Shown here: positions 2,853 through 47,407 of the stretch, one piece after another
Layout of the letters: every line of letters begins with the position of its first letter
Position numbering within the stretch: the stretch's first letter is position 1
Source: Escherichia coli
Lineage (GTDB): Bacteria; Pseudomonadota; Gammaproteobacteria; Enterobacterales; Enterobacteriaceae
NCBI RefSeq assembly: GCF_024502345.1
Contig: NZ_JALDNN010000001.1
Direction: 5' to 3' (one strand)
DNA length: 64,000 nt
Notes under the pieces: generated by a model
Database searches by the model: none
The model's input: the letters and a program-made list of their open reading frames with translations, nothing else
What the model was told of the DNA's origin: nothing
Translations under genes and position numbers: made by a program

Positions 2853-4037
2853 TTAATTTGCGGCTTCCTGACGATGAAAACCTCGCCACCAGACCAGTAA
2901 GTTAACCAGGGCAATCGTCGCGCCAGCCAGACAAACGCCAGCCCAACCGCCATGTTGCCAGGCTGAGGCTGAAATTAGCGAACCGGCGGCACCGCCAATA
3001 AAGTAGCTGGTCATGTAACCTGCGGTCAGGCGATTACGCGCATCAGGATGTATTCGATAAATTACCGTCTGGTTAGTGATATGCACGCCCTGTACGGTGA
3101 GGTCCAGCACCAGAATGCCGATAATCAACGCCAGTACGGAAGTGTGACCAAACCAGATTGCCAGCCATGAAAGTAACAGCAGAAGCAGACCGAATGTTGT
3201 GGTGTGGTGCGATTTGCCCTTGTCGGCAAAACCGCCCGCCGGACGAGCGCCCAACGCTCCGGCAGCTCCCGCAAGTCCAAACAGACCAATTACGCCATCG
3301 CTGTAGTTAAAAGGTGGAGCGGCAAGCAAAAAGGCCATCGAGGTCCAGAGAATGCTGAAGTTGGCAAAAGTCAGGCAGCCCAGCAATGCGCGGGTGCGCA
3401 GGATCTTATCGTTGATAAACATGCTGAAAACGGAACCCAACAACTGTGGGTAGTTGAGGTGGGTTTCTGATTTCATTTGTGGCAGACCACGCCATAATGC
3501 TAGCGCCATCAGAGCCATTAACACCGAGGCAACCCAAAAGACGGTGCGCCAGCCGCCGAGGTTTGCCAGTAACCCGGCAACGGTTCGTGCCAGCAATATC
3601 CCCAACAGCAGACCGCTCATAATGGTGCCAACCACTTTGCCGCATTTATCCGGTGAAGCCAGCGTCGCTGCCAGCGGAACCAGAATTTGTGCCACGACTG
3701 AGAATAAACCGGTTAATGCCGTACCGAGGATCATCATCGCCAGTGACTGACTGCTGGCAGTGATTAACATACCGCCCGCTGCCAGTAAGGTCATCGAGAC
3801 AATCAGGCGGCGGCGTTCAAACATATCACCGAGGGGAACAAGAAACAGTAGACCTGCGGCATAGCCCAACTGCGCGGCGGTAACAATAAAGCCCGCCGAA
3901 CTGGCGGAGAGGGAAAAGTTACGCGCAATAGTGTCGAGCAGCGGTTGGGCGTAATAGTTGCTGGCGACCGCCAGACCGGTGGCGATCGACATCAGCACGA
4001 TCAGCGCCGGGCTAAGCTCATGAGTGGGTTTAGTCAT
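2853..4037 (-). CDS. ygaY: MFS transporter, apparently intact
   Basis: 394 aa ORF with multiple hydrophobic segments; position between proX and ygaZ matches ygaY. Confidence 0.8.
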   Translation of the reverse strand: MTKPTHELSPALIVLMSIATGLAVASNYYAQPLLDTIARNFSLSASSAGFIVTAAQLGYAAGLLFLVPLGDMFERRRLIVSMTLLAAGGMLITASSQSLAMMILGTALTGLFSVVAQILVPLAATLASPDKCGKVVGTIMSGLLLGILLARTVAGLLANLGGWRTVFWVASVLMALMALALWRGLPQMKSETHLNYPQLLGSVFSMFINDKILRTRALLGCLTFANFSILWTSMAFLLAAPPFNYSDGVIGLFGLAGAAGALGARPAGGFADKGKSHHTTTFGLLLLLLSWLAIWFGHTSVLALIIGILVLDLTVQGVHITNQTVIYRIHPDARNRLTAGYMTSYFIGGAAGSLISASAWQHGGWAGVCLAGATIALVNLLVWWRGFHRQEAAN

Positions 4038-4227
4038 TATTTTTGTTTATCAGGTGATGATTAAGCTGGAAATCAATAATAGCGGATGTTTATGAATGGG
4101 GGCGAAAGATAGCTTGTTGAAATGTGCGGTGTGGTTTGTAGGCATGATAAGACGCGCCAGCGTCGCATCAGGCATTGTGTACAGAGCGGCGGATGCGGCG
4201 AAAACGCCTTATCCGCCCGAATAAAAA

Positions 4228-5220
4228 TTACTTATGCGCTGCCAGCGCCTCATTCACCCAGCCATCGAACTGCTGCTGGTGGGCTTTGATCCAGCCATCA
4301 ACGTGGCCCTGAATATCGCCTTCTGAGGCTTTGCCGTCATGCATAATGGCGTTCTGGGCGTTAATATCTGCCACTGGCAACTGCATAATGGCAAACAGTT
4401 TCGCTGCTGCCGGGTTTTTCTCGGCCCAGGCTTTATTGGCAACGATATGCATGGTGCTGACCGGGAAGCCGTAATTCGCGCCATTCGGCAGTTTGGTATC
4501 GGCATTTTTATCGCCCGGCAGTGCAGAGAACGGCACCTGCAACCAGACCACATCTTTCCCTGGCTTCAGCTCATTACTCACCCAGTACGGCGTCCAGGTG
4601 TAGTAAAACACCGGTTTGCCCTCTTTGTAGCGACTGATGGTGTCAGCCATCATCGCTGCGTAGTTCCCCTGATTATGCGTCACGGTGTTGGTCAGTTCAT
4701 ACGCAGCAAGCTGGTGGTTGATCGCACCTTCGCAGCCCCAGCCTGGGTTACAACCGGTTAAATCCGCTTTGCCATCACCGTTGGTATCGAACAGTTTGGC
4801 GATCTTCGGATCTTTCAGTTGTGCGATGTTGGTGATTTTGTACTGGTCGGCGGTTTTCTTATCGATCAGGTAACCCTGTGCCGCGCCGTTAACAAATACT
4901 CCTTCACGATAAAATTTCTTATCGCCACCGGCAGCTTCGTACATGTTGTCATGCAGTGGCGTCCAGTTCACGGCGGTGAAGGTTGCATCGCCGGAAGCAA
5001 GCGAGGTGTAGCCAACGTTGTAATCTACTTCGCTGGGTTTGTTGACGGTATAGCCTAATTTCTCCAGCGCACGGCTGACCAGCAGCGTCTGGAAGGTTTC
5101 TTCGGTGATGGTGCTTTGAACTGGATTAACAGTAATGCCTTTGCCCGGCAGATCGGCAGCAAAAGTTTGTGTAGAGATAAGCGTGGCAAACGCTGTCGCA
5201 AAAAGTACGCTATGTCGCAT
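4228..5220 (-). CDS. proX: Glycine betaine/proline ABC transporter periplasmic binding protein
   Basis: Track ORF 4228-5268; internal Met (residue 17, [21 protein letters not shown] signal peptide) gives the 330 aa ProX length. Confidence 0.93.
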
Positions 5221-5276
5221 TGTTATTCCTTTTTTTGGCAGGGTGATATGCCCGGCGTCACCGGGCAAGTGCAGAG

Positions 5277-6341
5277 TTACTTAATGAATGGGCGGGTCAG
5301 CAGACCGACAGGGCCAGTGGTGTACCAGCGACGGTTGCCGCGACTGCGTGAGTCGCGCCCAACGGCCTGCGTCAGGCGATCGAGGATAATGGCGAGGATC
5401 ACAATCCCGACGCCGCCAACGGTGGCAAGCCCCATATCCAGACGACCGATACCGCGAAGTACCATCTGACCCAGCCCGCCGACGGCAATCATCGAGGCGA
5501 TGACCACCATAGAAAGGGCCAGCATCAGCGTCTGGTTAACGCCCGCCATAATGGTCGGCATCGCCAGCGGTAACTGAACTTTGAACAGCATCTGGCGCGG
5601 GCTGGCACCGAATGAGCGCGAGGCTTCAATCAGATCCGCCGGAACCTGGTTAATCCCCAGAATGGTCAGACGGATAATCGGCGGCAGAGCAAAGATGATC
5701 GTCACCACCACGCCCGGCACGTTACCGATACCAAATAGCATGACGATTGGCACCAGATAAACAAACGCTGGAGTGGTCTGCATGGCATCAAGCAGTGGAC
5801 GAATAATTTTCGCCGCTCGCGGACTTCTCGCCAGCCAGATCCCCAACGGCAAACCGATGACGATACAGAACAGCAGGGCGGTTAACACCAGCGCCAGAGT
5901 CACCATTGCCTGCGACCAGGCACCGATTGCGCCGATGGCAATCAGCGAAACCAGCGTCGCCACACCCATTCCGACCCCGGAAATCTGCCAGGCGATGAGA
6001 GCGAAAACGATAATCGCCACCGGTGCGGGCATACCCAGCAGCAATTGCTGGAAACCGTTGAGGATATAATCAACCGGAACGCGCACGCCCTGGAAGACGG
6101 GACGGAAATGGGTAACGACCCAGTCGATCCCTTCAGTGACCCAACTGTCGAGCGGGATCAGCGTTTTATGGAACGGATCGAGAATATTAAAATGCTCGAC
6201 GTTTGGCGCAGGCGTACTGGTCAGCCAGTCAGCATCACCGCCGTCAGTCGGTGCAGTCGTCGGTGTACCCCAGGCGTCTGCGGATTGCGCGGCACTGTCC
6301 GCCGCTGGCGTGGTATCCCACGGATTATTTTGATCAGCCAT
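5277..6341 (-). CDS. proW: Glycine betaine/proline ABC transporter permease
   Basis: 354 aa membrane ORF; proVWX operon order. Confidence 0.95.
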
Positions 6342-7891: not shown

Positions 7892-8860
<969 letters not shown>

Positions 8861-9281
8861 TTAAAGTGCACAGGAGACGCAGCCTTCAATTTCAGTGCCT
8901 TACAGCGCCATCTGACGCAGGCGAATGTAATAGAGCGTTTTGATACCTTTGCGCCAGGCGTAAATCTGCGCTTTGTTGATATCGCGAGTGGTGGCGGTAT
9001 CGGGGAAAAACAGCGTCAGCGACAAACCCTGATCGACATGGCGAGTCGCTTCCGCGTAGGTGTCGATGATCTTTTCTGCGCCGATTTCGTAAGCATCCTG
9101 ATACAGCGCCAGATTTTCGTTAGTCATAAACGGGGCAGGGTAGTAAACGCGTCCTGTTTTGCCCTCTTTGCGTATCTCTACTTTCGCCACAATCGGATGA
9201 ATACTCGACGTAGCATGTGATGTAGCCCCCTGAAACACCGGACAGTAGCTGTATCTCCAGATAAGAGATAGGCTTGAATAT

Positions 9282-9677
9282 ATGTCTAACACTAACGCCA
9301 ATTTTGAGATGACCGGGATCCTGTTAGGGCAAGAAGTCCGTAAACGTAAAACTCCTCAGGAGAAGATCGCCATTATCCAGCAGACGATGGAGCCGGGTAT
9401 GAATGTCTCCCATGTCGCCCGCCTGCATGGTATCCAGCCCAGCCTGCTGTTTAAGTGGAAGAAGCAATATCAGGAAGGCAGCCTCACCGCCGTTGCGGCT
9501 GGAGAGGAAGTCGTTCCTGCTTCTGAGCTTACTGCTGCTCTGAAGCAGGTCCGGGAGCTTCAGCGCCTTCTGGGCAAGAAAACGATGGAAGTTGAGATCC
9601 TGAAAGAAGCCGTGGAGTACGGTCAGTCGCGAAAATGGATAGCGCACGCGCCCTTGTTGCCAAAGGACGGGGAATAG
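9282..9677 (+). CDS. IS3-family transposase OrfA (HTH), InsC-like
   Basis: 131 aa; ...[43 protein letters not shown]... resembles IS2 InsC. Confidence 0.85.
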
Positions 9678-10516
9678 CCATGGTCAGCCGGACCATGGGC
9701 GTGTCGCGTGCGCAACTGTCACTGCGGATTAACCGTTCTGCCGACTGGCAGGACAGGCGCTGTAACCGGCGTAATGAAGAAGCAGACGCAGAAATACTGT
9801 CGGCTATCCTCAACATTATCAGCGATATGCCGAGTTATGGTTATCGACGCGTGTGGGGCATCCTGCGCAAGCAACGTCGCACAGAGGGACAGCCACCTGT
9901 GAATGCCAAACGGCTTTACAGGATAATGAGCGAGCATAACCTGTTGTTGTTGCATCACAAACCAGAGCGACCGAAGCGTGAACATAAGGGCAAGATAGCG
10001 GTGGCAGAAAGCGATATGCGCTGGTGTTCAGATGGCTTCGAGTTCGGCTGCGACAACGGCGAAAAACTGCGGGTAACGTTCGCGCTGGACTGCTGCGACC
10101 GTGAGGCCATAGACTGGGCAGCAAGCACGGGAGGCTATGACAGTTCGACCGTGCAGGATGTGATGCTGAGGTCGGTGGAAAAGCGCTTCGGCGACAGGTT
10201 GCCCGACACAGCGGTGCAGTGGCTGACGGATAACGGTTCAGCGTATACCGCGTATGAAACGCGGAGGTTCGCGAGAGAGCTGAATCTGGAGCCCTGCACA
10301 ACAGCGGTGAGCAGCCCGCAGAGTAATGGCATGGCCGAACGGTTCGTGAAAACGATGAAAGAAGACTATATCGCGTTCATGCCAAAACCGGATGTGAGAA
10401 CAGCACTGCGAAACCTTGCAGTAGCGTTCACGCATTACAATGAAAACCACCCGCACAGCGCGCTGGGATATCACTCCCCGAGGGAATACCGGCGGCAGCG
10501 GACATCGTTAACTTAA
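9635..10516 (+). CDS. IS3-family transposase OrfB (DDE integrase core), InsD-like; probably expressed as OrfAB by frameshift
   Basis: 293 aa; ...[30 protein letters not shown]...WLTDNGSAY... resembles IS2 InsD; overlaps orfA in a different frame. Confidence 0.85.
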
Positions 10517-12329
10517 GATACAAAAGCTGTTCGGAGATGGAGGGTCAAGATCATACTCGACGTAGCATGGTTGATATAAGAGATAGAACCGGTTGGCGGC
10601 ACCGCCTGAAGATTCTGGTTGTAAATGCCGTAGCGCATCACGTCGTCGCGCAGTTGCGCCCACATCTCACGGGTAGGTAACGTAATACCGCTGCGGGCAA
10701 ACAGTTCGCCAACTTTCGCCGTTTTCGGCTGCCAGTTACCTTGCAGATATTGGCTAAAATATTCACCACTGGCATAACGTGACTGTTTGAACCCGGCGAA
10801 GGTTTCACCGCGTTCGCGCGCCAGCAACATCGAGGTACGCAGTGCGTGCCAGGTGATGGCATAGAAATAGAGATTGGTGAAATCCAGTGCTTCCGGCGAA
10901 CCATAAGCGATGCCTTCTCGCGCCAGATAGCCGTGTAAATTCATCTGCCCCAGTCCGATGGCGTGTGAGGCGGCATTTCCGGCTTCGATGGACGGCACGC
11001 TGCGGATATGACTCATATCTGACACCGCCGTTAAACCGCGCACGGCAGTCTCTACCGTGCGGGCAAAATCGGGGGAATCCATGGTGTGCGCAATATTCAA
11101 CGAACCTAAATTGCAGGAAATATCATGGCCTGTACGGGCATAGTCGAGATTCTCGTCATACTCTGAGGCGCTGTTAACCTGCAAAATTTCTGAGCAGAGA
11201 TTACTCATATTTATGCGCCCGGCGATAGGGTTAGCACGGTTTACCGTGTCTTCATACATGATGTAGGGATAGCCGGACTCAAACTGGATTTCTGCCAGTC
11301 GCTGGAAGAAATCACGGGCGTTGAGGTATTTTTTGCGAATGCGTTCATCGGCAACCAGTTCGTCATAGTGTTGGCTGATGGCCACATCGGCAAACGGCTT
11401 GCCATAAACTCGCTCTACGTCATAAGGCGAAAACAGCGCCATCTGCGCATTCTCTTTTGCCAGATGGAAAGTGATATCCGGGATCACCACGCCCAGCGAC
11501 AGTGTTTTAATGCGGATTTTCTCGTCGGCATTTTCCCGTTTCGTATCGAGAAAACGCAGAATATCGGGATGATGGGCATGTAAATAGACTGCACCAGCCC
11601 CCTGACGAGCGCCGAGCTGGTTGGCATAGGAAAATGCGTCTTCCAGCATTTTCATCACCGGAATCACGCCAGAAGATTGATTTTCAATACGTTTAATTGG
11701 CGCGCCCGCTTCCCGCAGATTCGACAGCAAAAATGCCACGCCGCCGCCGCGTTTCGACAGTTGCAGTGCGGAATTTACCGCCCGGCCAATCGACTCCATA
11801 TTGTCTTCAATACGCAGCAAAAAACAGGAAACCAGTTCGCCGCGCTGCTGCTTACCACAGTTGAGGAATGTCGGTGTTGCAGGCTGAAAGCGTCCTGACA
11901 GCATCTCATCGGTCAGTTGCGTCGCCAGTGTTTCATCGCCTTGTGCCAGCGTTAGCGCCACCATCGTGACTCGATCGGCAAAATCTTCCAGATAACGCTT
12001 ACCGTCGAATGTCTTCAACGTATAGCTGGTGTAAAACTTCCATGCTCCGAGGAATGTCTGAAAACGAAAACCGCTGGCGTGTGCGTGGGCAAACAGCGTA
12101 ATGACAAAATCGCGAGAGTAGCGGTTGAGGACGTTTTCATCATAGTAACCTTCGTTGACCAGCCAGTTCAGGCGCTGCTGCTGGCTACTGAAGGTCACAC
12201 TGTTCGGACGCACATGTGTCGCCATAAAGGCGTCAACGGCCTGGCGATCTTTATCGAACTGAATGCGACCTGCGCTATCGTAAAGGTTAAGCATCGCATT
12301 CAGCGCGTGGTAATCCATCGTTTCCTGCG

Positions 12330-12740
12330 TCAGGCGTTCTGCGGTTGTCGTTGCCAAAATTCGGTTACTCCTTTACGAACGTTTTCGATATCGCTTTGCG
12401 TACCCATGAGTTCAAAGCGGTACAGCCACGGCACGCCGCATTTCCGGGCTATCACATCTCCGGCGCGGCCATACGCCTCACCAAAGTTGCGATTACCCGA
12501 AGCAATAACGCCGCGAAGCAACGCCCGGTTGTGCTCGTCGTTTAAAAAGCGAATTACCTGTCGTGGCACCGCGCCAGCCGTACCGCCGCCGCCGTAAGAG
12601 GGCACGATCAGGATGTAAGGCTCGTCTACCTGAATCCGTTCCCGCTCATTGAGCGGGATGCGCACCGCGGGCAGACCTAAACGTTCGATAAAACGCTGCG
12701 TGTTTTCGGAGCTGCTGGAGAAGTAGACGAGCTGGCTCAT
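12330..12740 (-). CDS. nrdI: Flavodoxin-like NrdI
   Basis: 136 aa [24 protein letters not shown]... Confidence 0.93.
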
Positions 12741-12982
12741 GCACTGGCCGCGTGTGGCGCTGGATGCAGACGGTTAATCATGTCCGGACGGAAACCAGAC
12801 CAGCTAAGATCGCCAGCAATCACTACCGGCAACTGACGAAAGCCCTGAGCACGCAACGCTTCTGCCGCTTCAGGAACGCGATCGACATTAATCATTTCAA
12901 AATCAAAGCCCCGGTTTTCCATCGCCCGTTTGGTGGCGTGGCACTGAACGCAATCGTTACGAGTGTAAATAGTAATGCGCAT
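12737..12982 (-). CDS. nrdH: Glutaredoxin-like NrdH
   Basis: 81 aa ORF with CVQC redox motif ([18 protein letters not shown]). Confidence 0.93.
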
Positions 12983-19540: not shown

Positions 19541-19950
19541 GCCGGAGAGCGGCTCCGCCTTATCCGGCCGACATAGATTTATTCCTGTTCACGTACAGAT
19601 TGTCGGATGCGGCGTAAACGCCTTATCCGACCTGGATCCCCGTAGGCCGGACAAGACGCGCAGCGTCGCCTCCGGCATGGGTGCGCCGATTGTCGGATGC
19701 GGCGCAAACGCCTTATCCGACCTACATTTCCGTAGGCCGGACAAGACGCGTAAGCGTCGCCTCCGGCATGGTGCGCCGAATGTCGGATGCGGCGTTAACG
19801 CCTTATCCAACCTACACTCTCGTAGGCCGGACAAGACGCGCAGCGTCGCCTCCGGCATGGTGCGCCGATTGTCGGATGCGGCGTTAACGCCTTATCCGAC
19901 CTACACTCTCGTAGGCCGGACAAGACGCGCAGCGTCGCCTCCGGCATGGG
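19541..19950. repeat. REP/BIME array, ~4.5 tandem units of ~90 bp
   Basis: Units TGTCGGATGCGGCG.AAACGCCTTATCCGACCT...CGTAGGCCGGACAAGACGCG.AGCGTCGCCTCCGGCATGG recur at 19601, 19691, 19781, 19870; palindromic REP consensus; gabP-gabT intergenic. Confidence 0.85.
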
Positions 19951-27068: not shown

Positions 27069-27377
27069 GTGACTCACATGACAAAAACAGTATCAACCAG
27101 TAAAAAACCCCGTAAACAGCATTCGCCTGAATTTCGCAGTGAAGCCCTGAAGCTTGCTGAACGCATCGGTGTTACTGCCGCAGCCCGTGAACTCAGCCTG
27201 TATGAATCACAGCTCTACAACTGGCGCAGTAAACAGCAAAATCAGCAGACGTCTTCTGAACGTGAACTGGAGATGTCTACCGAGATTGCACGTCTCAAAC
27301 GCCAGCTGGCAGAACGGGATGAAGAGCTGGCTATCCTCCAAAAGGCCGCGACATACTTCGCGAAGCGCCTGAAATGA
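27069..27377 (+). CDS. insE: IS3 transposase OrfA (InsE)
   Basis: ...[53 protein letters not shown]...; probable true start at the second Met. Confidence 0.9.
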
Positions 27378-28240
27378 AGTATGTCTTTATTGAAAAACAT
27401 CAGGCTGAGTTCAGCATCAAAGCAATGTGCCGCGTGCTCCGGGTGGCCCGCAGCGGCTGGTATACGTGGTGTCAGCGGCGGACAAGGATAAGCACGCGTC
27501 AGCAGTTCCGCCAACACTGCGACAGCGTTGTCCTCGCGGCTTTTACCCGGTCAAAACAGCGTTACGGTGCCCCACGCCTGACGGATGAACTGCGTGCTCA
27601 GGGTTACCCCTTTAACGTAAAAACCGTGGCGGCAAGCCTGCGCCGTCAGGGACTGAGGGCAAAGGCCTCCCGGAAGTTCAGCCCGGTCAGCTACCGCGCA
27701 CACGGCCTGCCTGTGTCAGAAAATCTGTTGGAGCAGGATTTTTACGCCAGTGGCCCGAACCAGAAGTGGGCAGGAGACATCACGTACTTACGTACAGATG
27801 AAGGCTGGCTGTATCTGGCAGTGGTCATTGACCTGTGGTCACGTGCCGTTATTGGCTGGTCAATGTCGCCACGCATGACGGCGCAACTGGCCTGCGATGC
27901 CCTGCAGATGGCGCTGTGGCGGCGTAAGAGGCCCCGGAACGTTATCGTTCACACGGACCGTGGAGGCCAGTACTGTTCAGCAGATTATCAGGCGCAACTG
28001 AAGCGGCATAATCTGCGTGGAAGTATGAGCGCAAAAGGTTGCTGCTACGATAATGCCTGCGTGGAAAGCTTCTTTCATTCGCTGAAAGTGGAATGTATCC
28101 ATGGAGAACACTTTATCAGCCGGGAAATAATGCGGGCAACGGTGTTTAATTATATCGAATGTGATTACAATCGGTGGCGGCGGCACAGTTGGTGTGGCGG
28201 CCTCAGTCCGGAACAATTTGAAAACCAGAACCTCGCTTAG
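27374..28240 (+). CDS. insF: IS3 transposase OrfB (InsF), DDE
   Basis: 288 aa [35 protein letters not shown]... Confidence 0.9.
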
Positions 28241-28324: not shown

Positions 28325-29381
28325 GGCTTTGTTGAATAAATCAGATTTCGGGTAAGTCTCCCCCGTAGCGGGTTGTGTTTTCAGGCAATACGCACGCTTT
28401 CAGGCATACCTGCTTTCGTCATTTTGTTCAGCGCTCGTACCAGGGCCATAGCCTCTGCAACCTGACCATCGTAGTCACGCAGTGTCAGTGAACCCCCGAA
28501 CAGCTGTTTTACCCGGTACATCGCCGTTTCCGCTATCGAGCGACGGTTGTAATCTGTTGTCCATTTCCACCGCGCATTACTCCCGGTCATTCGCTGATTA
28601 GCCACTGCACGGTTACGGTCTGCATATTCACCGGGCCAGTAACCCGCACCTTTTCGGGGAGGGATAAGCGCGCTGATTTTCTTACGCCGCAGTTCATCGT
28701 GACATAGCCGGGTATCGTAAGCGCCATCGGCGGCGGCTGACCTGATTTTCCGGTGGGTTTGCCGGATTAACCCGGGGAAGGCCTCTGAGTCCGTAACGTT
28801 GTTCAGCGACAGGTCAGCGCAGATGATTTCATGTGTTTTACTGTCAACGGCGAGATGCAGCTTACGCCAGATACGGCGGCGTTCCTGGCCATGCTTTTTG
28901 ACTTTCCACTCGCCTTCACCGAAGACCTTCAGCCCGGTGGAATCAATTACCAGGTGTGCGATTTCACCCCGGGTGGGCGTTTTGAAACTGACATTAACCG
29001 ACTTTGCCCGCCTGCTGACACAGCTGTAATCCGGGCAGCGTAGCGGAACGTTCATCAGAGAAAAAATGGAATCAATAAAGCCCTGCGCAGCGCGCAGGGT
29101 CAGCCTGAATACGCGTTTAATGACCAGCACAGTCGTGATGGCAAGGTCAGAATAGCGCTGAGGTCTGCCTCGTGAAGAAGGTGTTGCTGACTCATACCAG
29201 GCCTGAATAGCTTCATCATCCAGCCAGAAAGTTATGGAGCCACGGTTGATGAGGGCTTTATTGTAGGTGGGCCAGTTGGTGATTTTGAACTTTTGCTTTG
29301 CCACGGAACGGTCTGCGTTGTCGGGAAGATACGTGATCTGATCCTTCAACTCAGCAAAAGTTCGATTTATTCAACAAAGCC
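28325..29381 (-). mobile_element. IS903-family element, complete (1057 bp)
   Basis: 18-bp terminal inverted repeats GGCTTTGTTGAATAAATC at both ends; flanking 9-mers differ (GGTCGTTGT vs TGTCCCCAT). Confidence 0.93.
28381..29349 (-). CDS. IS903-family DDE transposase
   Basis: 322 aa track ORF; YREK-type signature (YNRRSIAETAMYRVKQ); true start may be an internal GTG. Confidence 0.9.
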   Translation of the reverse strand: MKDQITYLPDNADRSVAKQKFKITNWPTYNKALINRGSITFWLDDEAIQAWYESATPSSRGRPQRYSDLAITTVLVIKRVFRLTLRAAQGFIDSIFSLMNVPLRCPDYSCVSRRAKSVNVSFKTPTRGEIAHLVIDSTGLKVFGEGEWKVKKHGQERRRIWRKLHLAVDSKTHEIICADLSLNNVTDSEAFPGLIRQTHRKIRSAAADGAYDTRLCHDELRRKKISALIPPRKGAGYWPGEYADRNRAVANQRMTGSNARWKWTTDYNRRSIAETAMYRVKQLFGGSLTLRDYDGQVAEAMALVRALNKMTKAGMPESVRIA

Positions 29382-30062: not shown

Positions 30063-31772
30063 ATGAGTATGTTTCAGATATCAGCTGGAGTGTTCTTTGA
30101 TTTAGATAAAATAGAAAAACACGATGGCGCATTTGTTTTTTATTCAAATGTTGATGTGTCTTTCTCGGTGGAAAACACCTCCCCTCTTTTTAAAGCAAAT
30201 AAAATAAGTCATGATGGTATAAACTGTTATGTGGTAAACTATACTCTCCTGACCGAAAAACCAGAACGAATTGAAGCTGGAGTCGTAGTTAGGGCTGGTG
30301 ATGAGGATTATAGGCAACAATTTATTTTATTATGGGAATTCTATTTTGATTGTGTGGCTAGAGTAGAAAAAGAATCGGTTAAAAAAATATGTGCATTATC
30401 AAATTTTAATAAACATCACTCAAAAATTGCGCTTGAAGTTGCCCCATATTTAGTGGAGATTAACCGAAGAGTTTCATTTGATGATGTCTCTGGGTTTTCT
30501 GCTTTTATTAAAGATGTAGTGAATCTAAATAGATCTGCCTTTAAATCTTTAATGGCAGCGTTAAAAATAATTAGTGATTCAAAAGAATCATTGTCAACCA
30601 ACTTTGACCTGACTTATTCCATGTTAGTCTATGCCTTGGAGTCTTTGTCTCAAAGAAATGATAACTATAAGTCTGATTGGGATGACTACGATCAAAAAAC
30701 CAGAGGTGAATTAGAGTCTGTATTTGAGCATATGCCTGGTGAGGATGTTTGTAAAATTAAATCAATACTTATTGAAGGCAAACAATTCAGATTACAAAAA
30801 AGGTTCAAAGATTTTATACTGAAAAATCTTGAAGAAAATTATTTCAATGAAACAGAGAGATATCCAATCCGCTATAGCTTCCTTAGTAGAGCTTTAGATA
30901 ATTTATACAAAATCAGGTCTTCTTTTGTCCATGAGCTTAAGCCACTTGATGCAATGATCTCGAAAGCCTACAATCCTGTTGGTGATTGTCTGGTTCTTTT
31001 TGGCGAACCTCACTTCAGTTACTCTGGATTGCTTCGACTTCTTCGCCATGTGATAATAAATTTTTGCCGTAAAAACTACAGTCAAAAAAGAGAGTATGTT
31101 AATTGGGTGATGGAAACATCGGGTGTAATGGTTGCAGAGATATCTGCACAATATTGGCTCTGGAATGCAGACGGATTTACAGCTAAAAGTATAGCGAAGT
31201 GGTTTAGTGAATACCTAAATATGTTAAATTTAGGCGAAGTCACTGATTTGCAGTCTATCATGGACAAAATTGAGATAATCTATGACCAATCCAAAAAAGA
31301 ATATAAAAATGGGTTGTTGTATTTTTATTTCTTATATAACTTAATGCATAATGGAAATAAGGGTGAATGGCTTGAGTTTGCGAACAAGCGAAGTTCTATA
31401 CTTGTTTGTGATATATATTGGTATTCATGCTCTCCATATTTATATAAATCATTTACTAATGTTTCAAATGGTATTGCTGATATAAAAACATTGAGAAACT
31501 TTTTGTCTTGTTTTAACGAATATGATAAAAATAAATTTAAGCCAAATCGTTTAAATCTCCCTGCAATGACCGAAGTAATTATGTTGGCTTGCGCAGCAAA
31601 TTCATTCTTCAGAATTGGAATGTATCAAGACTATGTTTTAATGGGCAATAGAGCGATGAGAGAAATTGCTTCAGTAAAAGATGTATTTTATTATATAAAA
31701 GAACGATTAAGTAATTCACAACTTATTGAATTGGACGAGTGCTTGAGATTGTATAGAAAAAAAGGGGGCTAA
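30063..31772 (+). CDS. Hypothetical protein, 569 aa, AT-rich, no family recognised
   Basis: Single long ORF with strong AT bias; GAGT-containing RBS-like sequence before the ATG; bracketed by integrase 3' remnants and inverted IS903 copies. Confidence 0.75.
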   Translation: MSMFQISAGVFFDLDKIEKHDGAFVFYSNVDVSFSVENTSPLFKANKISHDGINCYVVNYTLLTEKPERIEAGVVVRAGDEDYRQQFILLWEFYFDCVARVEKESVKKICALSNFNKHHSKIALEVAPYLVEINRRVSFDDVSGFSAFIKDVVNLNRSAFKSLMAALKIISDSKESLSTNFDLTYSMLVYALESLSQRNDNYKSDWDDYDQKTRGELESVFEHMPGEDVCKIKSILIEGKQFRLQKRFKDFILKNLEENYFNETERYPIRYSFLSRALDNLYKIRSSFVHELKPLDAMISKAYNPVGDCLVLFGEPHFSYSGLLRLLRHVIINFCRKNYSQKREYVNWVMETSGVMVAEISAQYWLWNADGFTAKSIAKWFSEYLNMLNLGEVTDLQSIMDKIEIIYDQSKKEYKNGLLYFYFLYNLMHNGNKGEWLEFANKRSSILVCDIYWYSCSPYLYKSFTNVSNGIADIKTLRNFLSCFNEYDKNKFKPNRLNLPAMTEVIMLACAANSFFRIGMYQDYVLMGNRAMREIASVKDVFYYIKERLSNSQLIELDECLRLYRKKGG

Positions 31773-31932: not shown

Positions 31933-32673
31933 GGCTTTGTTGAATAAATCGAACTTTTGCTGAGTTGAAGGATCAGATCACGTATCTTCCCGACAACGCA
32001 GACCGTTCCGTGGCAAAGCAAAAGTTCAAAATCACCAACTGGCCCACCTACAATAAAGCCCTCATCAACCGTGGCTCCATAACTTTCTGGCTGGATGATG
32101 AAGCTATTCAGGCCTGGTATGAGTCAGCAACACCTTCTTCACGAGGCAGACCTCAGCGCTATTCTGACCTTGCCATCACGACTGTGCTGGTCATTAAACG
32201 CGTATTCAGGCTGACCCTGCGCGCTGCGCAGGGCTTTATTGATTCCATTTTTTCTCTGATGAACGTTCCGCTACGCTGCCCGGATTACAGCTGTGTCAGC
32301 AGGCGGGCAAAGTCGGTTAATGTCAGTTTCAAAACGCCCACCCGGGGTGAAATCGCACACCTGGTAATTGATTCCACCGGGCTGAAGGTCTTCGGTGAAG
32401 GCGAGTGGAAAGTCAAAAAGCATGGCCAGGAACGCCGCCGTATCTGGCGTAAGCTGCATCTCGCCGTTGACAGTAAAACACATGAAATCATCTGCGCTGA
32501 CCTGTCGCTGAACAACGTTACGGACTCAGAGGCCTTCCCCGGGTTAATCCGGCAAACCCACCGGAAAATCAGGTCAGCCGCCGCCGATGGCGCTTACGAT
32601 ACCCGGCTATGTCACGATGAACTGCGGCGTAAGAAAATCAGCGCGCTTATCCCTCCCCGAAAAGGTGCGGGTT
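31933..32673 (+). mobile_element. IS903-family element, truncated second copy (~741 bp), inverted relative to copy 1
   Basis: Starts with GGCTTTGTTGAATAAATCGAACTTTTGCTGAG; identical to copy 1 up to ...AAAGGTGCGGGTT, then diverges into the yfjP-like fragment. Confidence 0.9.
31965..32673 (+). pseudogene. IS903-family transposase, C-terminally truncated
   Basis: First ~236 codons identical to the copy-1 transposase; track ORF continues in unrelated out-of-frame sequence. Confidence 0.8.
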
Positions 32674-33094
32674 GCATCACACCGTTCCAGAACTGCTCGT
32701 CCACCGACAGCGCACGGTCATCAGCTTTGATGACCCACAGCACCAGGTCAAGCTCTGGCAGCATACGCCGGTACAGGGCGCGGTATTCATGGTCCCGTTG
32801 TCCGTTCTCTCCCACGCCCGGTAAATCAACAATCACCAGACTGTGACGACCACTGCGCAGCCGGAAGCGCAGTATGTCGCGGGTGCAGGCGTTCACATCA
32901 CTGACGGCGGAGACTTCCCCCCGAAAGAGTTCGTTACAGAGCGACGACTTACCGGCACCACTCTTGCCCATGATGCCAATCACCGGCTCGTAGTGGGTCA
33001 GATTCTGAATACGTTCAAGAATAAGCTGGCGAAGCGTATCGGGAAGCGACGCCAGCGGTTTTTCCAGGGCCTGAAGGCCATCAGTTTTATTCAT
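32674..33094 (-). pseudogene. yfjP: YfjP/YkfA/YeeP-family GTPase, N-terminal fragment
   Basis: MNKTDGLQALEKPLASLPDTLRQLILERIQNLTHYEPVIGIMGKSGAGKSSLCNELF... (P-loop GKSGAGKS); cut short at the IS903 junction. Confidence 0.75.
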
Positions 33095-33726: not shown

Positions 33727-36540
33727 ATGCCAATGGAGAGCTGTACGCAAATGAACGCCGTAGAAATTGAACAAGCCATCACGGATCTTGCAGAGCAACC
33801 CTTTGATCCTATAGAGTTTCCTTATGCTTTTCTTGAAGCCTTTGGTAACAAGGAAACGACTGTCAAACGCTTGCGCGCCGGTGCATCAAACAAATCCGAC
33901 TTGGGCGGTGTTCTCCAGAGCAATAATATTCACATTCTGACCTGCGAAGCAGGGACTGTGACTCAGATGTTGGCCGCGCTCAAGGCTAGCCCTGCGACAA
34001 CTAAAGCCAAGGCGAAGTTCATCCTGGCTACAGATGGCAAAGATTTCGAAGCTGAAGACCTCGTTAGCGGTCAGACTGTCGCTTGCGCCTTTAAAGACTT
34101 CCCAGATCACTTCGGCTTTTTCTTGCCATTAGCAGGCATTAGCACAGTTCGTCAGATTTGTGAGAACTCCTTTGACATTCGGGCCACTAGCCGGCTGAAT
34201 CGTCTGTATGTCGAGTTGTTGAAAGATAACCCTACCTGGGGGACGGCGGAGCGACGTCATGACATGAACAAATTCATGACTCGGCTGATCTTTTGTTTTT
34301 TCGCTGAGGATACTGACATTTTCGTGGGTAAGGGACGCTTTACTGAAACCGTTGCGCAGATGAGTACAAGAGATTCGTCGAATACGCATGAAGTTATCGC
34401 TACCTTGTTTCGTGCCATGAACACCAGTAACAAAGATAGAGCCGCCGCTGGCATCCCGCGCTGGGCCAATGAGTTTCCTTATGTCAACGGACGCTTGTTC
34501 TCTGGGAGTAATGATGTACCACTGTTCAGTAAGATTGCACGGTCTTATTTGCTCCATGTGGGTAGCCTTGACTGGACCAAGATTAATCCGGATATCTTTG
34601 GCTCGATGATTCAGGCAATTGCCGAAGACGAAGAACGCGGAGAGCTGGGGATGCATTACACCAGCGTACCCAACATCTTAAAAGTTTTGAATCCACTATT
34701 TCTGGACGACCTGCGCGCAAAGCTGGATGAGGCGGGTGACAATCCGCGTATGTTGCTTAACCTGCGTAAGCGCATTTCCCACATCCGTGTGTTCGACCCA
34801 GCGTGCGGTTCTGGTAACTTTTTGGTTATCGCGTACAAGGAAATGCGTGCCATTGAGGCCGAAATCAACAAGCGGCGTAATGAGCCAGATCGCGCCTCGG
34901 ATATCCCACTTACCAACTTTCGCGGGATTGAACTAAGAGATTTCCCGGCAGAGATCGCCCGCCTTGCGCTTGTTATCGCTGAGTACCAATGTGATGTACT
35001 GTACCGTGGGCTGCGGTTGGCCTTGGCTGAGCTTCTTCCGTTACGCAACGAAAATTGGATTACCTGTGGCAATGCACTACGGCTCGACTGGTTAAGAATT
35101 TGCCCGCCGACAGGAACAGGTGTGAAATTACATGGCGATGACTTGTTTGGATCTCCGCTTGATCAGGCAGAGATCGACTTTGAGAATGAAGGCGGAGAGA
35201 CATACATTTGCGGTAACCCACCATACCTTGGTTCAAAGTGGCAGACGGATGAACATAAAGCTGATCTTGGCACAATCTTTTCTGGTCGCGTGAAAAATTG
35301 GAAATCGCTCGATTATGTTGCTGGCTGGTTCCTGAAAGCCGCTGACTATGGTAGCCAGACAAGTTCCCAGGCTGCTTTTGTTGCCACTAATTCAATCAGC
35401 CAAGGGCAGCAAGTGTCGATTCTGTGGCCGGAAATATTCAAGGCAGGACAAGAGATTAGTTTCGCTTACACGAGCTTTAAGTGGTCGAACCTCGCTACTC
35501 ACAACGCCGGGGTCACAGTTGTTATCATCGGAATTTCTAACTGTGTAGGAAAGTCGCGACGCCTCTTTTCGGCTGGAGGAGACAATGGTGCGACGACGTG
35601 TCGTGAGGTGGAGCGCATCAACGCCTATTTGATCGCTGGCCCTAACATCATTGTGGAGGGGGACAGTTGTCCAGCCGACAGTCTTGCAACGATGCAGTTC
35701 GGTAACCACCCGTACTATGGTGCATCACTGATCTTTTCGAGATCTGAAGCACAGCAGATGATGTCTGTCGATCCGCGTACGGCGCGTTTTATTCGCCCAC
35801 TATATGGCTCCCAAGAGTTCATTTCCGCTGTGCCACGAGCCTGTCTATGGATTAACGACGATGAGGCTGACGAAGCGGGGACGATTCCTCTGATAGCTGA
35901 GCGTATGAGCGCCGTAGCAAGTGCTAGACGTGCAAAAAAACAAGACAAGGCAGCCCAGAAACTGGCTAAGACTCCATATCGCTTTCGCGACCAGCAGACA
36001 TCTACGAATCATATTCTTGTGGTTCCTCGAGTCAGTTCAGAGAACCGTCCTTGCTTGCCGGTTGGATTACTTGACTCTGACTCTATCGTTCAAGATCAAG
36101 CATTCGCCCTTTACGACGCTCCTCTCTGGAACCTCGCCATCATAGCGAGTCGCCTGCATCTAGTTTGGATCGCCACGGTTTGTGGAAAGTTAGAGACACG
36201 CTACCGCTATTCAAACACCCTCGGCTGGAATACTTTCCCGCTCCCAACACTCACTGAGAAAAATAAGGCAGACCTCACGCGCTGTGCAGAGGATATTCTT
36301 CTGACTAGGGAGCATCACTTCCCTGCAACCATTGCAGACCTTTATGACCCCGAGAAGATGCCAGACGACCTGCGTATTGTGCACGAGCGTAATGACGAAG
36401 TGCTTGAGCGTATTTACATTGGGCGCCGCTTTAAGAATGACACAGAGCGGCTTGAGAAGCTGTTTGACCTTTATACTAAGATGGCCGCTTCAACTGCATC
36501 GGGCAAAAGCAATAAACGTAAAGTGGGAACCAATGCATGA
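33727..36540 (+). CDS. MmeI/PglX-like gamma-class N6-adenine DNA methyltransferase, 937 aa; no recognisable N-terminal PD-ExK motif
   Basis: Motif X-like HYTS, motif I VFDPACGSGNFLV, motif IV ICGNPPYLG; other blocks (RLIFCFFAEDTDIF, FPYVNGRLF, AFVATNSISQGQQVSILWP, LETRYRYSNTLGWNTFP) resemble the MmeI/PglX family from memory. Start could be Met-9 (33751). Confidence 0.85.
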   Translation: MPMESCTQMNAVEIEQAITDLAEQPFDPIEFPYAFLEAFGNKETTVKRLRAGASNKSDLGGVLQSNNIHILTCEAGTVTQMLAALKASPATTKAKAKFILATDGKDFEAEDLVSGQTVACAFKDFPDHFGFFLPLAGISTVRQICENSFDIRATSRLNRLYVELLKDNPTWGTAERRHDMNKFMTRLIFCFFAEDTDIFVGKGRFTETVAQMSTRDSSNTHEVIATLFRAMNTSNKDRAAAGIPRWANEFPYVNGRLFSGSNDVPLFSKIARSYLLHVGSLDWTKINPDIFGSMIQAIAEDEERGELGMHYTSVPNILKVLNPLFLDDLRAKLDEAGDNPRMLLNLRKRISHIRVFDPACGSGNFLVIAYKEMRAIEAEINKRRNEPDRASDIPLTNFRGIELRDFPAEIARLALVIAEYQCDVLYRGLRLALAELLPLRNENWITCGNALRLDWLRICPPTGTGVKLHGDDLFGSPLDQAEIDFENEGGETYICGNPPYLGSKWQTDEHKADLGTIFSGRVKNWKSLDYVAGWFLKAADYGSQTSSQAAFVATNSISQGQQVSILWPEIFKAGQEISFAYTSFKWSNLATHNAGVTVVIIGISNCVGKSRRLFSAGGDNGATTCREVERINAYLIAGPNIIVEGDSCPADSLATMQFGNHPYYGASLIFSRSEAQQMMSVDPRTARFIRPLYGSQEFISAVPRACLWINDDEADEAGTIPLIAERMSAVASARRAKKQDKAAQKLAKTPYRFRDQQTSTNHILVVPRVSSENRPCLPVGLLDSDSIVQDQAFALYDAPLWNLAIIASRLHLVWIATVCGKLETRYRYSNTLGWNTFPLPTLTEKNKADLTRCAEDILLTREHHFPATIADLYDPEKMPDDLRIVHERNDEVLERIYIGRRFKNDTERLEKLFDLYTKMAASTASGKSNKRKVGTNA

Positions 36541-38582
36541 GCAACAAGATTAGATCTGTACCGTCAGTTTCTGTTACCTACTCACGCAACGGAGCATCGA
36601 CCAAGGCTAATTCTCTTGGGATGCGTCCTATGCAAGAAAGGGCTTATGAGAAGCGCGGAGAACAATATCTTCTCATAAAGTCGCCGCCCGCCTCTGGCAA
36701 GAGTCGTGCGCTGATGTTCGTCGCACTCGATAAACTCGCAAACCAGGGGATCAAACAGGCAATCATTGTCGTGCCGGAAAAATCTATCGGCGCGAGCTTC
36801 AACGATGAACCGCTATCGCAGTTTGGATTCTGGGCTGATTGGCATGTTGAACCTAAGTGGAATCTGTGCAACGCCCCCGGTAACGACAACGGCGGCAAGG
36901 TAAAATCTTTCGGCTCTTTTCTTGAAAGTAGCGACAAGGTGCTTGTTTGTACACACGCAACCTTTCGCTTCGCGGTCGATGCCTACGGTGTAGAGGCGTT
37001 TGACGATCGCCTGATCGCCGTCGATGAATTTCACCATGTGTCCGCTAACCCGGATAACAAGCTTGGTCAGCATCTGGGACAGTTCATTGAGCGTGACAAG
37101 ACGCACATCGTGGCCATGACCGGCTCCTACTTCCGGGGAGATGCGGAAGCCGTTTTGGCTCCTCAGGATGAGTCTAGGTTCGATACCGTCACCTACACCT
37201 ACTACGAACAACTCAACGGTTACGAATACCTCAAACAGCTTGATATCGGATACTTCTTTTATAGTGGATCATACATTGATGACATCCTCAATGTCCTCGA
37301 TCCTGACAAGAAAACGATTATCCATATTCCCAACGTCAATTCGCGCGAGAGTACGAAGGATAAAATTAAGGAGGTGGAGCACATTCTGAGCGAGCTTGGC
37401 GATTGGCAAGGTGCGGATCCTACGACTGGTTTTCAGCTAGTCAAGCGCCCCGATGGCCATGTGTTGCGTATTGCTGACCTGGTGGACCCAGCCAGTCAAG
37501 GCAAGATTCAGGAAAGCCTCCGAGCTCCAGAAATGAAGACAGACCGTGACTATGTAGACATCATTATTGCACTTGGTATGGCGAAGGAAGGTTTCGACTG
37601 GATCTGGTGCGAACATGCGCTGACTGTTGGCTACCGTGCCAGCCTGACTGAGATCGTGCAGATTATCGGTCGCGCTACTCGCGACGCGCCGGGTAAAACC
37701 CGCGCGAGATTTACTAACTTGATCGCCGAGCCCGACGCTGTAGAGGGCGCAGTAACTGAGGCAGTCAACGATACCTTGAAAGCTATCGCGGCGAGCCTGT
37801 TGATGGAACAGGTACTGGCTCCGCGCTTCGAGTTCAAGCCCAAGAATCCTGAAATCGGTCCGACTCCAGGCTTTGATTATGGTGATGGAGGATATGACCC
37901 GGATAGCTGCAATTTTGGTGTTAATGAGCAGACAGGGACGTATCAAATCGAGATTAAGGGACTTGCCGAGCCTAGGAGCAAAGAGGCGGCACGTATCTGC
38001 CAGGAAGATTTAAACGAAGTGATCGCGGCCTTTGTGCAGGATAAGCCCGCCATCGAACGAGGCCTGTTCGATGAAGAGCTGATCCCTGAAGAGTTAACAC
38101 AGGTTCGTATGGGTAAGATCATCAAAGAAAAGTATCCTGAACTTGATGCTGAAGATCAGGAGGCTGTACGTCAGCATGCTATCGCCGCCCTTAACCTCAC
38201 GCAGCAGGCCAAGCGTCTTGCTACCGGTGAAAACGATGGGACGCTCAATACTGCTCTTATTGACGGAGTGCGTCGCTTTGCAATGGATGTGCGCGATTTA
38301 GACATAGACCTTATCGACCGCATCAATCCCTTTGGTGAAGCCTACGCTATCCTTGCTAAGACGATGAGTGAAGACAGTTTGAAGCAGGTCGCGGCGGCCA
38401 TCTCGGCCAAGCGTACTTCGATCACGCCTGAAGATGCCAAGGTGATCGCCAAGCGTGCCGCTGAATTCAAACGTGAACGTGGGCGCCTCCCATCGTTAAC
38501 TTCGCTGGATGCTTGGGAAAAACACCTTGCTGAAGGTGCAGCCGCGTTTATGCGTTTTAGGGCGGAGGGACGTTATGAGTAA
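36537..38582 (+). CDS. SF2 DExH-box helicase (ResIII-like), 681 aa, with ~270 aa C-terminal region of unknown function
   Basis: Motif I PPASGKS, motif II AVDEFHHV, motif III MTGS, motif VI QIIGRATRD; ATG overlaps the methyltransferase stop (ATGA). Confidence 0.85.
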   Translation: MSNKIRSVPSVSVTYSRNGASTKANSLGMRPMQERAYEKRGEQYLLIKSPPASGKSRALMFVALDKLANQGIKQAIIVVPEKSIGASFNDEPLSQFGFWADWHVEPKWNLCNAPGNDNGGKVKSFGSFLESSDKVLVCTHATFRFAVDAYGVEAFDDRLIAVDEFHHVSANPDNKLGQHLGQFIERDKTHIVAMTGSYFRGDAEAVLAPQDESRFDTVTYTYYEQLNGYEYLKQLDIGYFFYSGSYIDDILNVLDPDKKTIIHIPNVNSRESTKDKIKEVEHILSELGDWQGADPTTGFQLVKRPDGHVLRIADLVDPASQGKIQESLRAPEMKTDRDYVDIIIALGMAKEGFDWIWCEHALTVGYRASLTEIVQIIGRATRDAPGKTRARFTNLIAEPDAVEGAVTEAVNDTLKAIAASLLMEQVLAPRFEFKPKNPEIGPTPGFDYGDGGYDPDSCNFGVNEQTGTYQIEIKGLAEPRSKEAARICQEDLNEVIAAFVQDKPAIERGLFDEELIPEELTQVRMGKIIKEKYPELDAEDQEAVRQHAIAALNLTQQAKRLATGENDGTLNTALIDGVRRFAMDVRDLDIDLIDRINPFGEAYAILAKTMSEDSLKQVAAAISAKRTSITPEDAKVIAKRAAEFKRERGRLPSLTSLDAWEKHLAEGAAAFMRFRAEGRYE

Positions 38583-47044: not shown

Positions 47045-47407
47045 TGGTGGAGCTGGCGGGAGTTGAACCCGCGTCCGAAATTCCTACATCCTCGGTACTA
47101 CATGCTTAGTCAGTCTTTACATTCGCTTGCCAGCTGCGGACGGACACGCCACTAACAAACTAGCCTGATTAAGTTTTAACGCTTCAACCCCAGGCAGGGC
47201 TTCCACGCGATCTCTTTTGGGTTTGACCTCTCTTGATCCCCGTCCTAAGAGCGGAGGCTAGGGAGAGAGGGCTCTAAGCAGGTTATTAAGCTGCTAAAGC
47301 GTAGTTTTCGTCGTTTGCGACTATTTTTTGCGGCTTTTTACGAGGCCAACCGCCCCTCGGCATGCACCTTGGGTTTCGCAAATCCCGTCGAATCCAGAAT
47401 CAGCCCC
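47045..47407 (-). ncRNA. ssrA: tmRNA (SsrA), 363 nt
   Basis: Reverse complement begins GGGGCTGATTCTGGATTCGACGGG and ends GGTTCAACTCCCGCCAGCTCCACCA; terminator-like hairpin follows at ~46975-47015. Confidence 0.97.

Follow-up and report, generated by a model that had tools for sequence, protein, structure and literature searches.

The nrdHIEF locus and its insertion

The stretch of DNA analysed here (the window; 64,000 nucleotides (nt) of contig NZ_JALDNN010000001.1 from Escherichia coli) carries the nrdHIEF operon on its minus strand, with the genes in the order nrdH-nrdI-nrdE-nrdF. Within nrdE lies an insertion sequence (IS) of the IS3 family, assigned below to ISEcl1 by the names given to its proteins, which interrupts the gene after nt 1804, at codon 601 of 714, in antisense orientation. 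A preliminary description of this DNA had placed an IS3-family element at this point, where NrdE reads ...INHATSS on one side of the IS and (HATSS)IHPIV... on the other, and had expected the class Ib reductase NrdEF to be inactive; the interruption is borne out by the analysis, and so is the expectation that follows from it. The same description had reported a perfect 17-base-pair (bp) direct repeat of nrdE sequence around the element and had attributed its length to an atypical transposition event or a misplaced IS end.

A repeat search recovered this direct repeat, ATACTCGACGTAGCATG, at 9201-9217 and 10553-10569 (17/17 positions, 100% identical), with the two copies 1352 nt apart. Over its whole length (1-1336), the 1336-bp element matches at 100% identity copies that occur in many chromosomes and plasmids of E. 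coli, and 12 of these identical copies were fetched with their flanks to fix the termini. The ends, TGATGTAGCCCCC...GGGTCAAGATCA, are constant in all 12, and the flanks are mutually unrelated. Every copy has the A that stands at 10553, irrespective of its flank, and this A is therefore the last base of the IS (terminal CA). Since it belongs to the IS, only 16 of the 17 nucleotides of the repeat are a true target duplication, and the remaining match is coincidental.

The closest complete genome, E. coli FDAARGOS_943 (L214; 99.7% identity over 25 kb), has an uninterrupted nrdE, on which the left and right flanks of the window overlap by exactly 16 nt. The alignment with this intact gene, which the preliminary description had proposed, fixes the insertion point and the 16-bp length, TACTCGACGTAGCATG being present there once. 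Removal of the IS and one copy of the duplication leaves an nrdE of 2145 nt that is collinear base for base with the FDAARGOS_943 gene, with 27 substitutions. The same nrdE::IS junction was found in no complete E. coli RefSeq genome. The near-identical backgrounds of the window and FDAARGOS_943 differ mainly in IS content: FDAARGOS_943 is without the ISEcl1 of the window and carries, between an MFS transporter gene and proX (L214 4150-5312), an IS3 copy that is absent from the window at about 4000-5300.

The 5′ fragment of nrdE runs on into the IS for 13 foreign codons before it meets a stop, giving an open reading frame (ORF) of 614 amino acids (aa) at 10513-12357. The 3′ fragment carries a second lesion. 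The boundary of nrdE had been set at 8900, but collinearity with the 714-codon reference extends the gene to 8861, and the TAA at 8900-8902 is a premature stop, E702* (GAA>TAA; C>A at 8902 on the plus strand). This is the sole disruptive difference between the reconstructed gene and nrdE of FDAARGOS_943, and the base is private, with an exact match to the surrounding 70-nt stretch in 0 of 5399 complete E. coli genomes. E702* removes the last 13 NrdE residues, among them the C-terminal cysteine pair, and would by itself deprive NrdE of its C-terminal tail. With its reading frame broken both by the IS after nt 1804 and by the TAA at codon 702, nrdE is a decaying pseudogene with two independent private lesions. 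NrdEF should be inactive because nrdE is truncated at residue 601 and also carries E702*. The downstream nrdF (Table 1) is left without a partner, and its transcription is probably weak because 1.35 kb of antisense IS precede it.

Table 1. Features of the nrdHIEF operon and of the inserted element, in positions of the window.
Feature	Position	Strand	Description
nrdH	12737-12982	-	Intact; upstream of nrdE in the operon
nrdI	12330-12740	-	Intact; upstream of nrdE in the operon
nrdE 5′ fragment	10554-12357	-	Codons 1-601
nrdE 3′ fragment	8861-9217	-	About the last 119 codons, including the stop; carries E702*
nrdF	7892-8851	-	319 aa; intact; downstream of the interrupted nrdE
ISEcl1 (IS3 family, IS2 group)	9218-10553	+	1336 bp; complete copy
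Left inverted repeat (IRL)	9218-9245	+	Begins 5′-TGAT; from alignment of both ends
Right inverted repeat (IRR)	10527-10553	+	Ends ...GATCA-3′; from alignment of both ends
orfA	9282-9677	+	131 aa; matches the IS2 repressor TnpA model below its cut-off
orfB	9635-10516	+	293 aa; carries the DDE catalytic domain; read in frame -1 with respect to orfA
Target-site duplication, IRL side	9202-9217	.	TACTCGACGTAGCATG
Target-site duplication, IRR side	10554-10569	.	TACTCGACGTAGCATG; single copy in the empty site of FDAARGOS_943

Structure, family and name of the element

The inverted repeats of the element are imperfect and about 27-28 nt long, with the common blocks TGAT, CCC and CCG(G/A)ACAG in a pairwise alignment of the two ends. 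Their layout matches the ends of IS2, and the element begins and ends with the TG...CA expected of the IS3 family (TGATGTAG...AAGATCA). The two overlapping ORFs, with orfB in the -1 frame, predict an OrfAB fusion made by programmed frameshifting. Their overlap contains CGA AAA TGG, with a presumed slippery A AAA at 9632-9635, and the frameshift window at 9626-9640, CGAAAATGG, holds an A4 run only. In identical copies, the Prokaryotic Genome Annotation Pipeline (PGAP) annotates one joined 'programmed frameshift' coding sequence and begins orfA at the ATG equivalent to 9309. IS2 and most of the relatives with 5-bp duplications have a run of A6-A7 at this site (GCAAAAAAG/ATGG); a relative from Pseudomonas with a 5-bp duplication (L092) also has A4, so the frameshift run does not track duplication length. 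The copy in nrdE is complete and probably active.

As a DDE (RNase H-fold) transposase, OrfB passes the cut-off of the NCBIfam model NF033516 transpos_IS3 (199 bits; cut-off 160). The best subfamily matches of the two proteins are IS2 TnpA and TnpB, and both remain below the respective cut-offs (OrfA against 'IS2 repressor TnpA', 201 bits, cut-off 229; OrfB against IS2 TnpB, 416 bits, cut-off 597), with OrfB 61% identical to that of IS2. By these protein comparisons the element is a member of the IS3 family and the IS2 group, but not IS2 itself, so that its earlier characterisation as IS2-like is correct at the level of the group.

By convention, an element is the same IS as an ISfinder reference when the two share at least 95% nt or at least 98% aa identity. 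The exact OrfA and OrfB fall within protein clusters whose named members (PGAP, UniRef) are called 'IS3-like element ISEcl1 family transposase' and 'Transposase of ISCel1', and these source-given names point to ISEcl1. The name first considered was ISEhe3, from a comparison of a 490-nt fragment of pPATHpab with a published remark on a partial ISEhe3; it was dropped because ISEhe3 belongs to the IS51 group in ISfinder, pPATHpab carries one ISEcl1, and sources name the exact proteins ISEcl1. In ISfinder, ISEcl1 is placed in the IS3 family, IS2 group, and a derived table quotes a direct repeat (DR) of 5, the value of the group (PMC10425158). The element is probably ISEcl1 as catalogued (ISfinder; Enterobacter cloacae, AF342826), and only the listed DR of 5 departs from the 15-16 bp found around its copies.

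ISEcl1 is common on plasmids of Klebsiella, Enterobacter and E. coli and is present in 1986 plasmid records, mostly from Klebsiella; the exact OrfA protein occurs on at least 1000 contigs in public collections, and a phage collection gave no matches to the IS. A copy of 98.4% identity adjoins IS1X on Klebsiella IncFIB(K) plasmids and was equated with the published 'IS1X1-ISEcl1' module (PMC7319535), which likewise speaks for the name ISEcl1. Furthermore, ISEcl1 flanks mcr-8 (PMC8969419), and a pair of copies together with blaIMI constitutes Tn6306 (PMC7855592). The element is itself a target for insertion: in E. coli TC24 (L223; NZ_CP171637.1, 357-1520) an IS110-family element of about 1.16 kb interrupts ISEcl1 at IS position 255/256 (2-nt overlap). 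An ISEcl1 in two pieces that spans the same 2502 bp and is accompanied by an annotated IS110-family transposase recurs in several unrelated records from E. coli and Klebsiella (H20, H22, H24, H63); the point of insertion was mapped in TC24 alone. ISEcl1 may thus offer a site-specific target to an IS110-type element, or the composite may be spreading as a unit.

Duplication length across copies of ISEcl1

Perfect flanking repeats of 15 or 16 bp surround 10 of the 12 identical copies, with no repeat at one copy and only a 5-nt match at another. In a protein-guided scan of one genome per species, from which the best 80 related loci were taken, relatives at 90-98% nt identity share the ISEcl1 termini. 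Loci with intact flanks show duplications of 16 bp in Yersinia artesiana, 15 bp in Pantoea stewartii and 16 bp in Enterobacter asburiae, and several ISEcl1-like copies of Candidatus Sodalis endolongispinus have duplications of 15-16 bp. When metagenomes were scanned for the left end, 13 more full copies turned up whose duplications measure 15 or 16 bp; one of these copies duplicates locus L011.

These insertions were pooled and de-duplicated into one set covering ISEcl1 and its 90-100% relatives from E. coli, Yersinia, Pantoea, Enterobacter, the Sodalis endosymbiont and metagenomes, in which only insertions still having matching flanks were counted. Among the 29 independent insertions, the duplication is 15 bp in 18 and 16 bp in 11, and lengths of 14 or 17 bp occur in none (0/29). 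The set likewise contains no offset repeat; offset or mismatched duplications, such as the extra base at IRL seen with IS2, were met only in decayed endosymbiont copies. The probability of an exact 15- or 16-nt match at fixed IS boundaries by chance is about 1e-9 to 2e-10.

Two further chromosomal insertions in E. coli were reconstructed by removing the IS and one repeat. Both the ydeE and the ydfJ/ydfI sites then yield 285 nt with a 100% match in one piece to other E. coli genomes, and the duplications are therefore true ones; at these two empty sites, as at that of nrdE, the duplicated 15/16-mer is single-copy. The duplicated stretch is slightly A/T-rich and shows no convincing target consensus, as the nominally enriched GTAA and TCTG fail correction for the 178 k-mers tested. 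The choice between the two lengths seems to depend on the base at position 16, where a G goes with 16 bp at 5/5 sites and the other bases with 16 bp at 6/24 (Fisher p = 0.004, post hoc).

Candidatus Sodalis endolongispinus, a mealybug endosymbiont (NZ_JAFJYC010000001.1; L018-L056, L072), has undergone a massive expansion of ISEcl1-like elements at about 91% nt identity; it alone accounts for about 40 of the best 80 loci of the species scan, many of them degraded or flank-swapped. The left flank of locus L024 and the right flank of locus L039 carry one common 15-mer, which indicates an IS-mediated rearrangement. In two metagenome contigs (L124, L192), the left flank ...GAAGTGGATTTGCC directly precedes an ISEcl1-like left end and is similar to the 10 outermost nt of a right end of IS2 type (TGGATTTGCC..); this points to the terminal repeat of a different IS2-group element as the target.

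Relatives with long and short duplications

The long duplication extends to a second named element. ISEc48, found on E. coli plasmids such as that of UMNK88, is 78% identical to ISEcl1 in nt sequence and 76.5% in OrfB; in the ISEc48 or ISEc48-like group (E. coli; the PGAP name in some records), four of five loci have a 15-bp duplication, one with a single mismatch. ISEc48 shares with ISEcl1 the indels of the clade, the residues flanking the active site, the TG...ACA ends and the 15-bp duplication. It differs in its terminal sequences, TGAGCTGGCCCCC / TGAACCGGCCCC ... AAGAACA / AAGGACA, and in that only 15-bp duplications were seen in its small sample, against both 15 and 16 bp in ISEcl1. Neither ISEcl1 nor the ISEc48-type elements have the short duplications that define the family and group (3-5 bp and 5 bp, respectively).

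Relatives at 60-68% OrfB identity behave differently. This set includes IS2 itself (in K. pneumoniae) and elements in Aeromonas, Lonsdalea, Serratia, Buttiauxella, Symbiopectobacterium, Burkholderia and Pseudomonas, all with IS2-type ends TAGAYTGG...AAATCCA. An exact 5-bp repeat is present at 14 of the 25 loci with recognisable ends, and a long duplication at none of the 25. The resemblance of IS2 to ISEcl1 is otherwise extensive, with a length of about 1.33 kb, overlapping orfA and orfB, orfB in the -1 frame, imperfect inverted repeats built from the same blocks (GCCCC ... CCAGACA) and a right end that closes with CA-3′. The differences lie in the left end (TGAT in ISEcl1, TAGA in IS2), in the frameshift window (CGAAAATGG as opposed to an A6-7 run) and in the duplication, which is 15-16 bp in ISEcl1 but 5 bp in IS2 and the elements closely related to it (14 loci, L073 among them).

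The OrfB proteins of the long-duplication clade carry a 2-residue insertion (..RRNEEADAE..) relative to those of the 5-bp relatives, and their linker is one residue shorter just before the catalytic core. Around the catalytic Glu, the long clade reads SSP...AERF...KED and the 5-bp relatives read RSP...AESF...KRD. The loci that might have placed the switch from 5 to 15 bp were uninformative, two of them being truncated or rearranged (L216, 86% nt; L217, 79% nt) and a third, from Rahnella (L045, 83% aa), lying on a contig without flanks.

Outside this lineage, duplications in the IS3 family are generally described as 3-5 bp. Long ones are familiar elsewhere, with 9-13 bp in the IS4 family, up to about 15 bp in IS481, long and variable lengths in IS1634 and 14-15 bp in casposons (Cas1). 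These systems share the long stagger, but they employ other transposase families or another class of enzyme, unlike ISEcl1 with its IS3-family transposase.

Interpretation and mechanism

The reading preferred here, with a probability of about 0.9, is that ISEcl1 inserted into nrdE, that the 16-bp repeat is the target-site duplication typical of its lineage, and that nrdE was knocked out with the loss of NrdEF. Direct observation covers the insertion and its duplication, the regular length of the latter and its confinement to one clade. The atypical event suggested at the outset gives way to a rule of the element, as all 29 insertions with matching flanks have 15 or 16 bp.

Several observations weigh against this reading. 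About half of all copies examined have non-matching flanks, which are common on plasmids and in the endosymbiont; recombination between copies would account for them and fits the 15-mer shared by L024 and L039, but it is an assumption. One identical copy, inside ISEcp1 (L005), has the 5-nt flank match only, which may reflect chance, a rearrangement, or an occasional IS2-like 5-bp insertion by ISEcl1. The range between 68 and 76% OrfB identity, where the boundary of the trait lies, contains no informative loci. The label ISEcl1 derives from the names that sources give to the proteins and not from the ISfinder reference sequence. Finally, the stagger is read from the products of insertion.

The mechanism can be proposed by analogy. 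IS2, IS911 and IS3 have an established copy-out/paste-in pathway through a circle with abutted ends, and that of IS2 is presumed to be the same for ISEcl1. Staggered cutting by the transposase, the circular intermediate and the helical-turn geometry described below are all carried over from these three elements. ISEcl1 would have been copied out as a circle with abutted ends and would have transposed into codon 601 of nrdE in the orientation opposite to the gene. OrfAB would integrate the circle by joining its two 3′-OH ends to opposite strands of the target. The two strand transfers would fall 15 or 16 bp apart, compared with 5 bp in IS2 and the rest of the group, and gap repair would then duplicate the stretch between the two joints. 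The two spacings differ by 10-11 bp, which corresponds to about one turn of B-DNA, so both active sites may still meet a single face of the target helix, with one more turn between them than in IS2.

In the DNA that was fetched, abutted ends were found only in metagenome contig OJTV01001662.1 (L099; 957-2152), where two copies of ISEcl1 stand head to tail with a single G between them (...GATCA G TGATG...). The upstream copy is 5′-truncated and 96% identical, and the downstream copy is 99% identical. As its halves are two different copies, it is no simple circle junction and gives no evidence of a circle; the arrangement is either an insertion beside the end of another copy or an assembly join. 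A sequence search of the PDB returned no structure of an IS3-family transposase, the only match being a retroviral integrase core (3kkr, E = 5e-4).

A broader proposal is that in one branch of the IS2 group, made up of ISEcl1, ISEc48 and relatives, the spacing of the two strand-transfer sites has grown by one helical turn, from 5 to 15-16 bp, in transposases that retain 61-68% identity with 5-bp relatives. Among the regular duplications of the IS3 family this one would be the longest, and the change would be previously undescribed. This is put forward tentatively, at somewhat less than even odds.

The strongest alternative concerns what sets the spacing. Instead of the geometry of the active sites, it might for instance be two sequential one-ended transfers kept at a distance by a bound OrfA/OrfAB multimer, bending of the DNA by a host protein, or nicking by a host enzyme during repair. 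Two observations would suit such a scheme: in its catalytic core OrfB closely resembles the 5-bp relatives, with the sole indels in the linker before it, and the influence of the base at position 16 implies a degree of flexibility where the IRL side is joined. However, the length is as tight (+/-1) as in classical duplications determined by the transpososome, and it stays the same in hosts as different as Enterobacteriaceae, Yersinia, Erwiniaceae and an insect endosymbiont, which speaks against a factor peculiar to one host. A spacing imposed in one of these ways is unlikely, though it deserves more weight than the two explanations that follow.

A one-off aberrant transposition, or IS ends set wrongly around a true duplication of 3-5 bp, would agree with the general description of IS3-family elements and with the value of 5 given for the IS2 group in the ISfinder-derived table (PMC10425158), and it is true that the 17-nt repeat includes one IS base. 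The preliminary description had likewise allowed that the true termini might lie inside the repeat and leave a short duplication. When the termini were compared, they proved constant in 12 unrelated contexts, outside the repeat except for the one shared A. Moreover, 28 further independent insertions have the 15-16-bp duplication, the empty nrdE site holds the 16-mer once, and the unrelated sequences of the flanking repeats exclude their being part of a longer mobile unit. An aberrant event or displaced ends are thus very improbable. Least credible of all is that the repeats already existed in the targets, through homing of the IS to short tandem or dispersed repeats, or arose by recombination after insertion: site-selectivity is known for some IS3-family elements and many copies have recombined flanks, but the three reconstructed empty sites match uninterrupted E. 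coli at 100% in a single piece with one copy of the 15/16-mer, and the 29 duplicated sequences are mutually unrelated, with no k-mer surviving multiple-testing correction.

Other features of the window

The region at about 25000-47400 looks like a genomic island at the gene for transfer-messenger RNA, ssrA (47045-47407, minus strand), which adjoins a P4-type integrase gene (45621-46862, minus strand). It contains a type IIG restriction-methyltransferase-like gene (33727-36540; PADLOC, 943 bits), followed by two ORFs (36537-38582 and 38509-39753) with no NCBIfam or PADLOC match. An ORF of 569 aa at 30063-31772 has only a faint ApeA-like match. The island also holds an IS3-family orfB (27374-28240) and IS5-family copies at 28381-29349 and 31965-32846 (truncated).

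Four matches to the Rfam family naRNA4 (RF02564) lie at 4141-4218 and 19645-19901, three of them in tandem between gabP and gabT with a spacing of about 90 nt. These are repeats of the repetitive extragenic palindrome/bacterial interspersed mosaic element (REP/BIME) type, which are usual in intergenic regions of E. coli.

Significance

NrdEF is the Mn-dependent class Ib reductase, which E. coli uses in iron starvation and oxidative stress. With nrdE disrupted, the host strain probably lacks the enzyme that would serve it under these conditions. As an IS insertion, nrdE::ISEcl1 is ordinary; the 15-16-bp duplication of the lineage is moderately interesting. A literature search on 15/16-bp duplications (IS3 family, ISEhe3, ISEc48, ISEcl1, Tn6306) found no stated length, ISfinder entries being outside the search. 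The trait may be recorded at the level of databases, and it lies outside the general description of the family.

In practice, tools and curators that expect IS3-family repeats of 3-5 bp will set the ends of ISEcl1 wrongly, or will miss its duplications and the composite transposons that it forms. Duplication length is treated as a fixed hallmark of a transposase family. If the proposed shift by one helical turn is true, a few differences in OrfB, namely the 2-residue insertion, the shorter linker and the swapped charges at E+1 and E+8 beside the catalytic Glu, would set that length. Close natural relatives with staggers of 5 bp and of 15-16 bp offer a direct handle on what determines the spacing of strand transfer.

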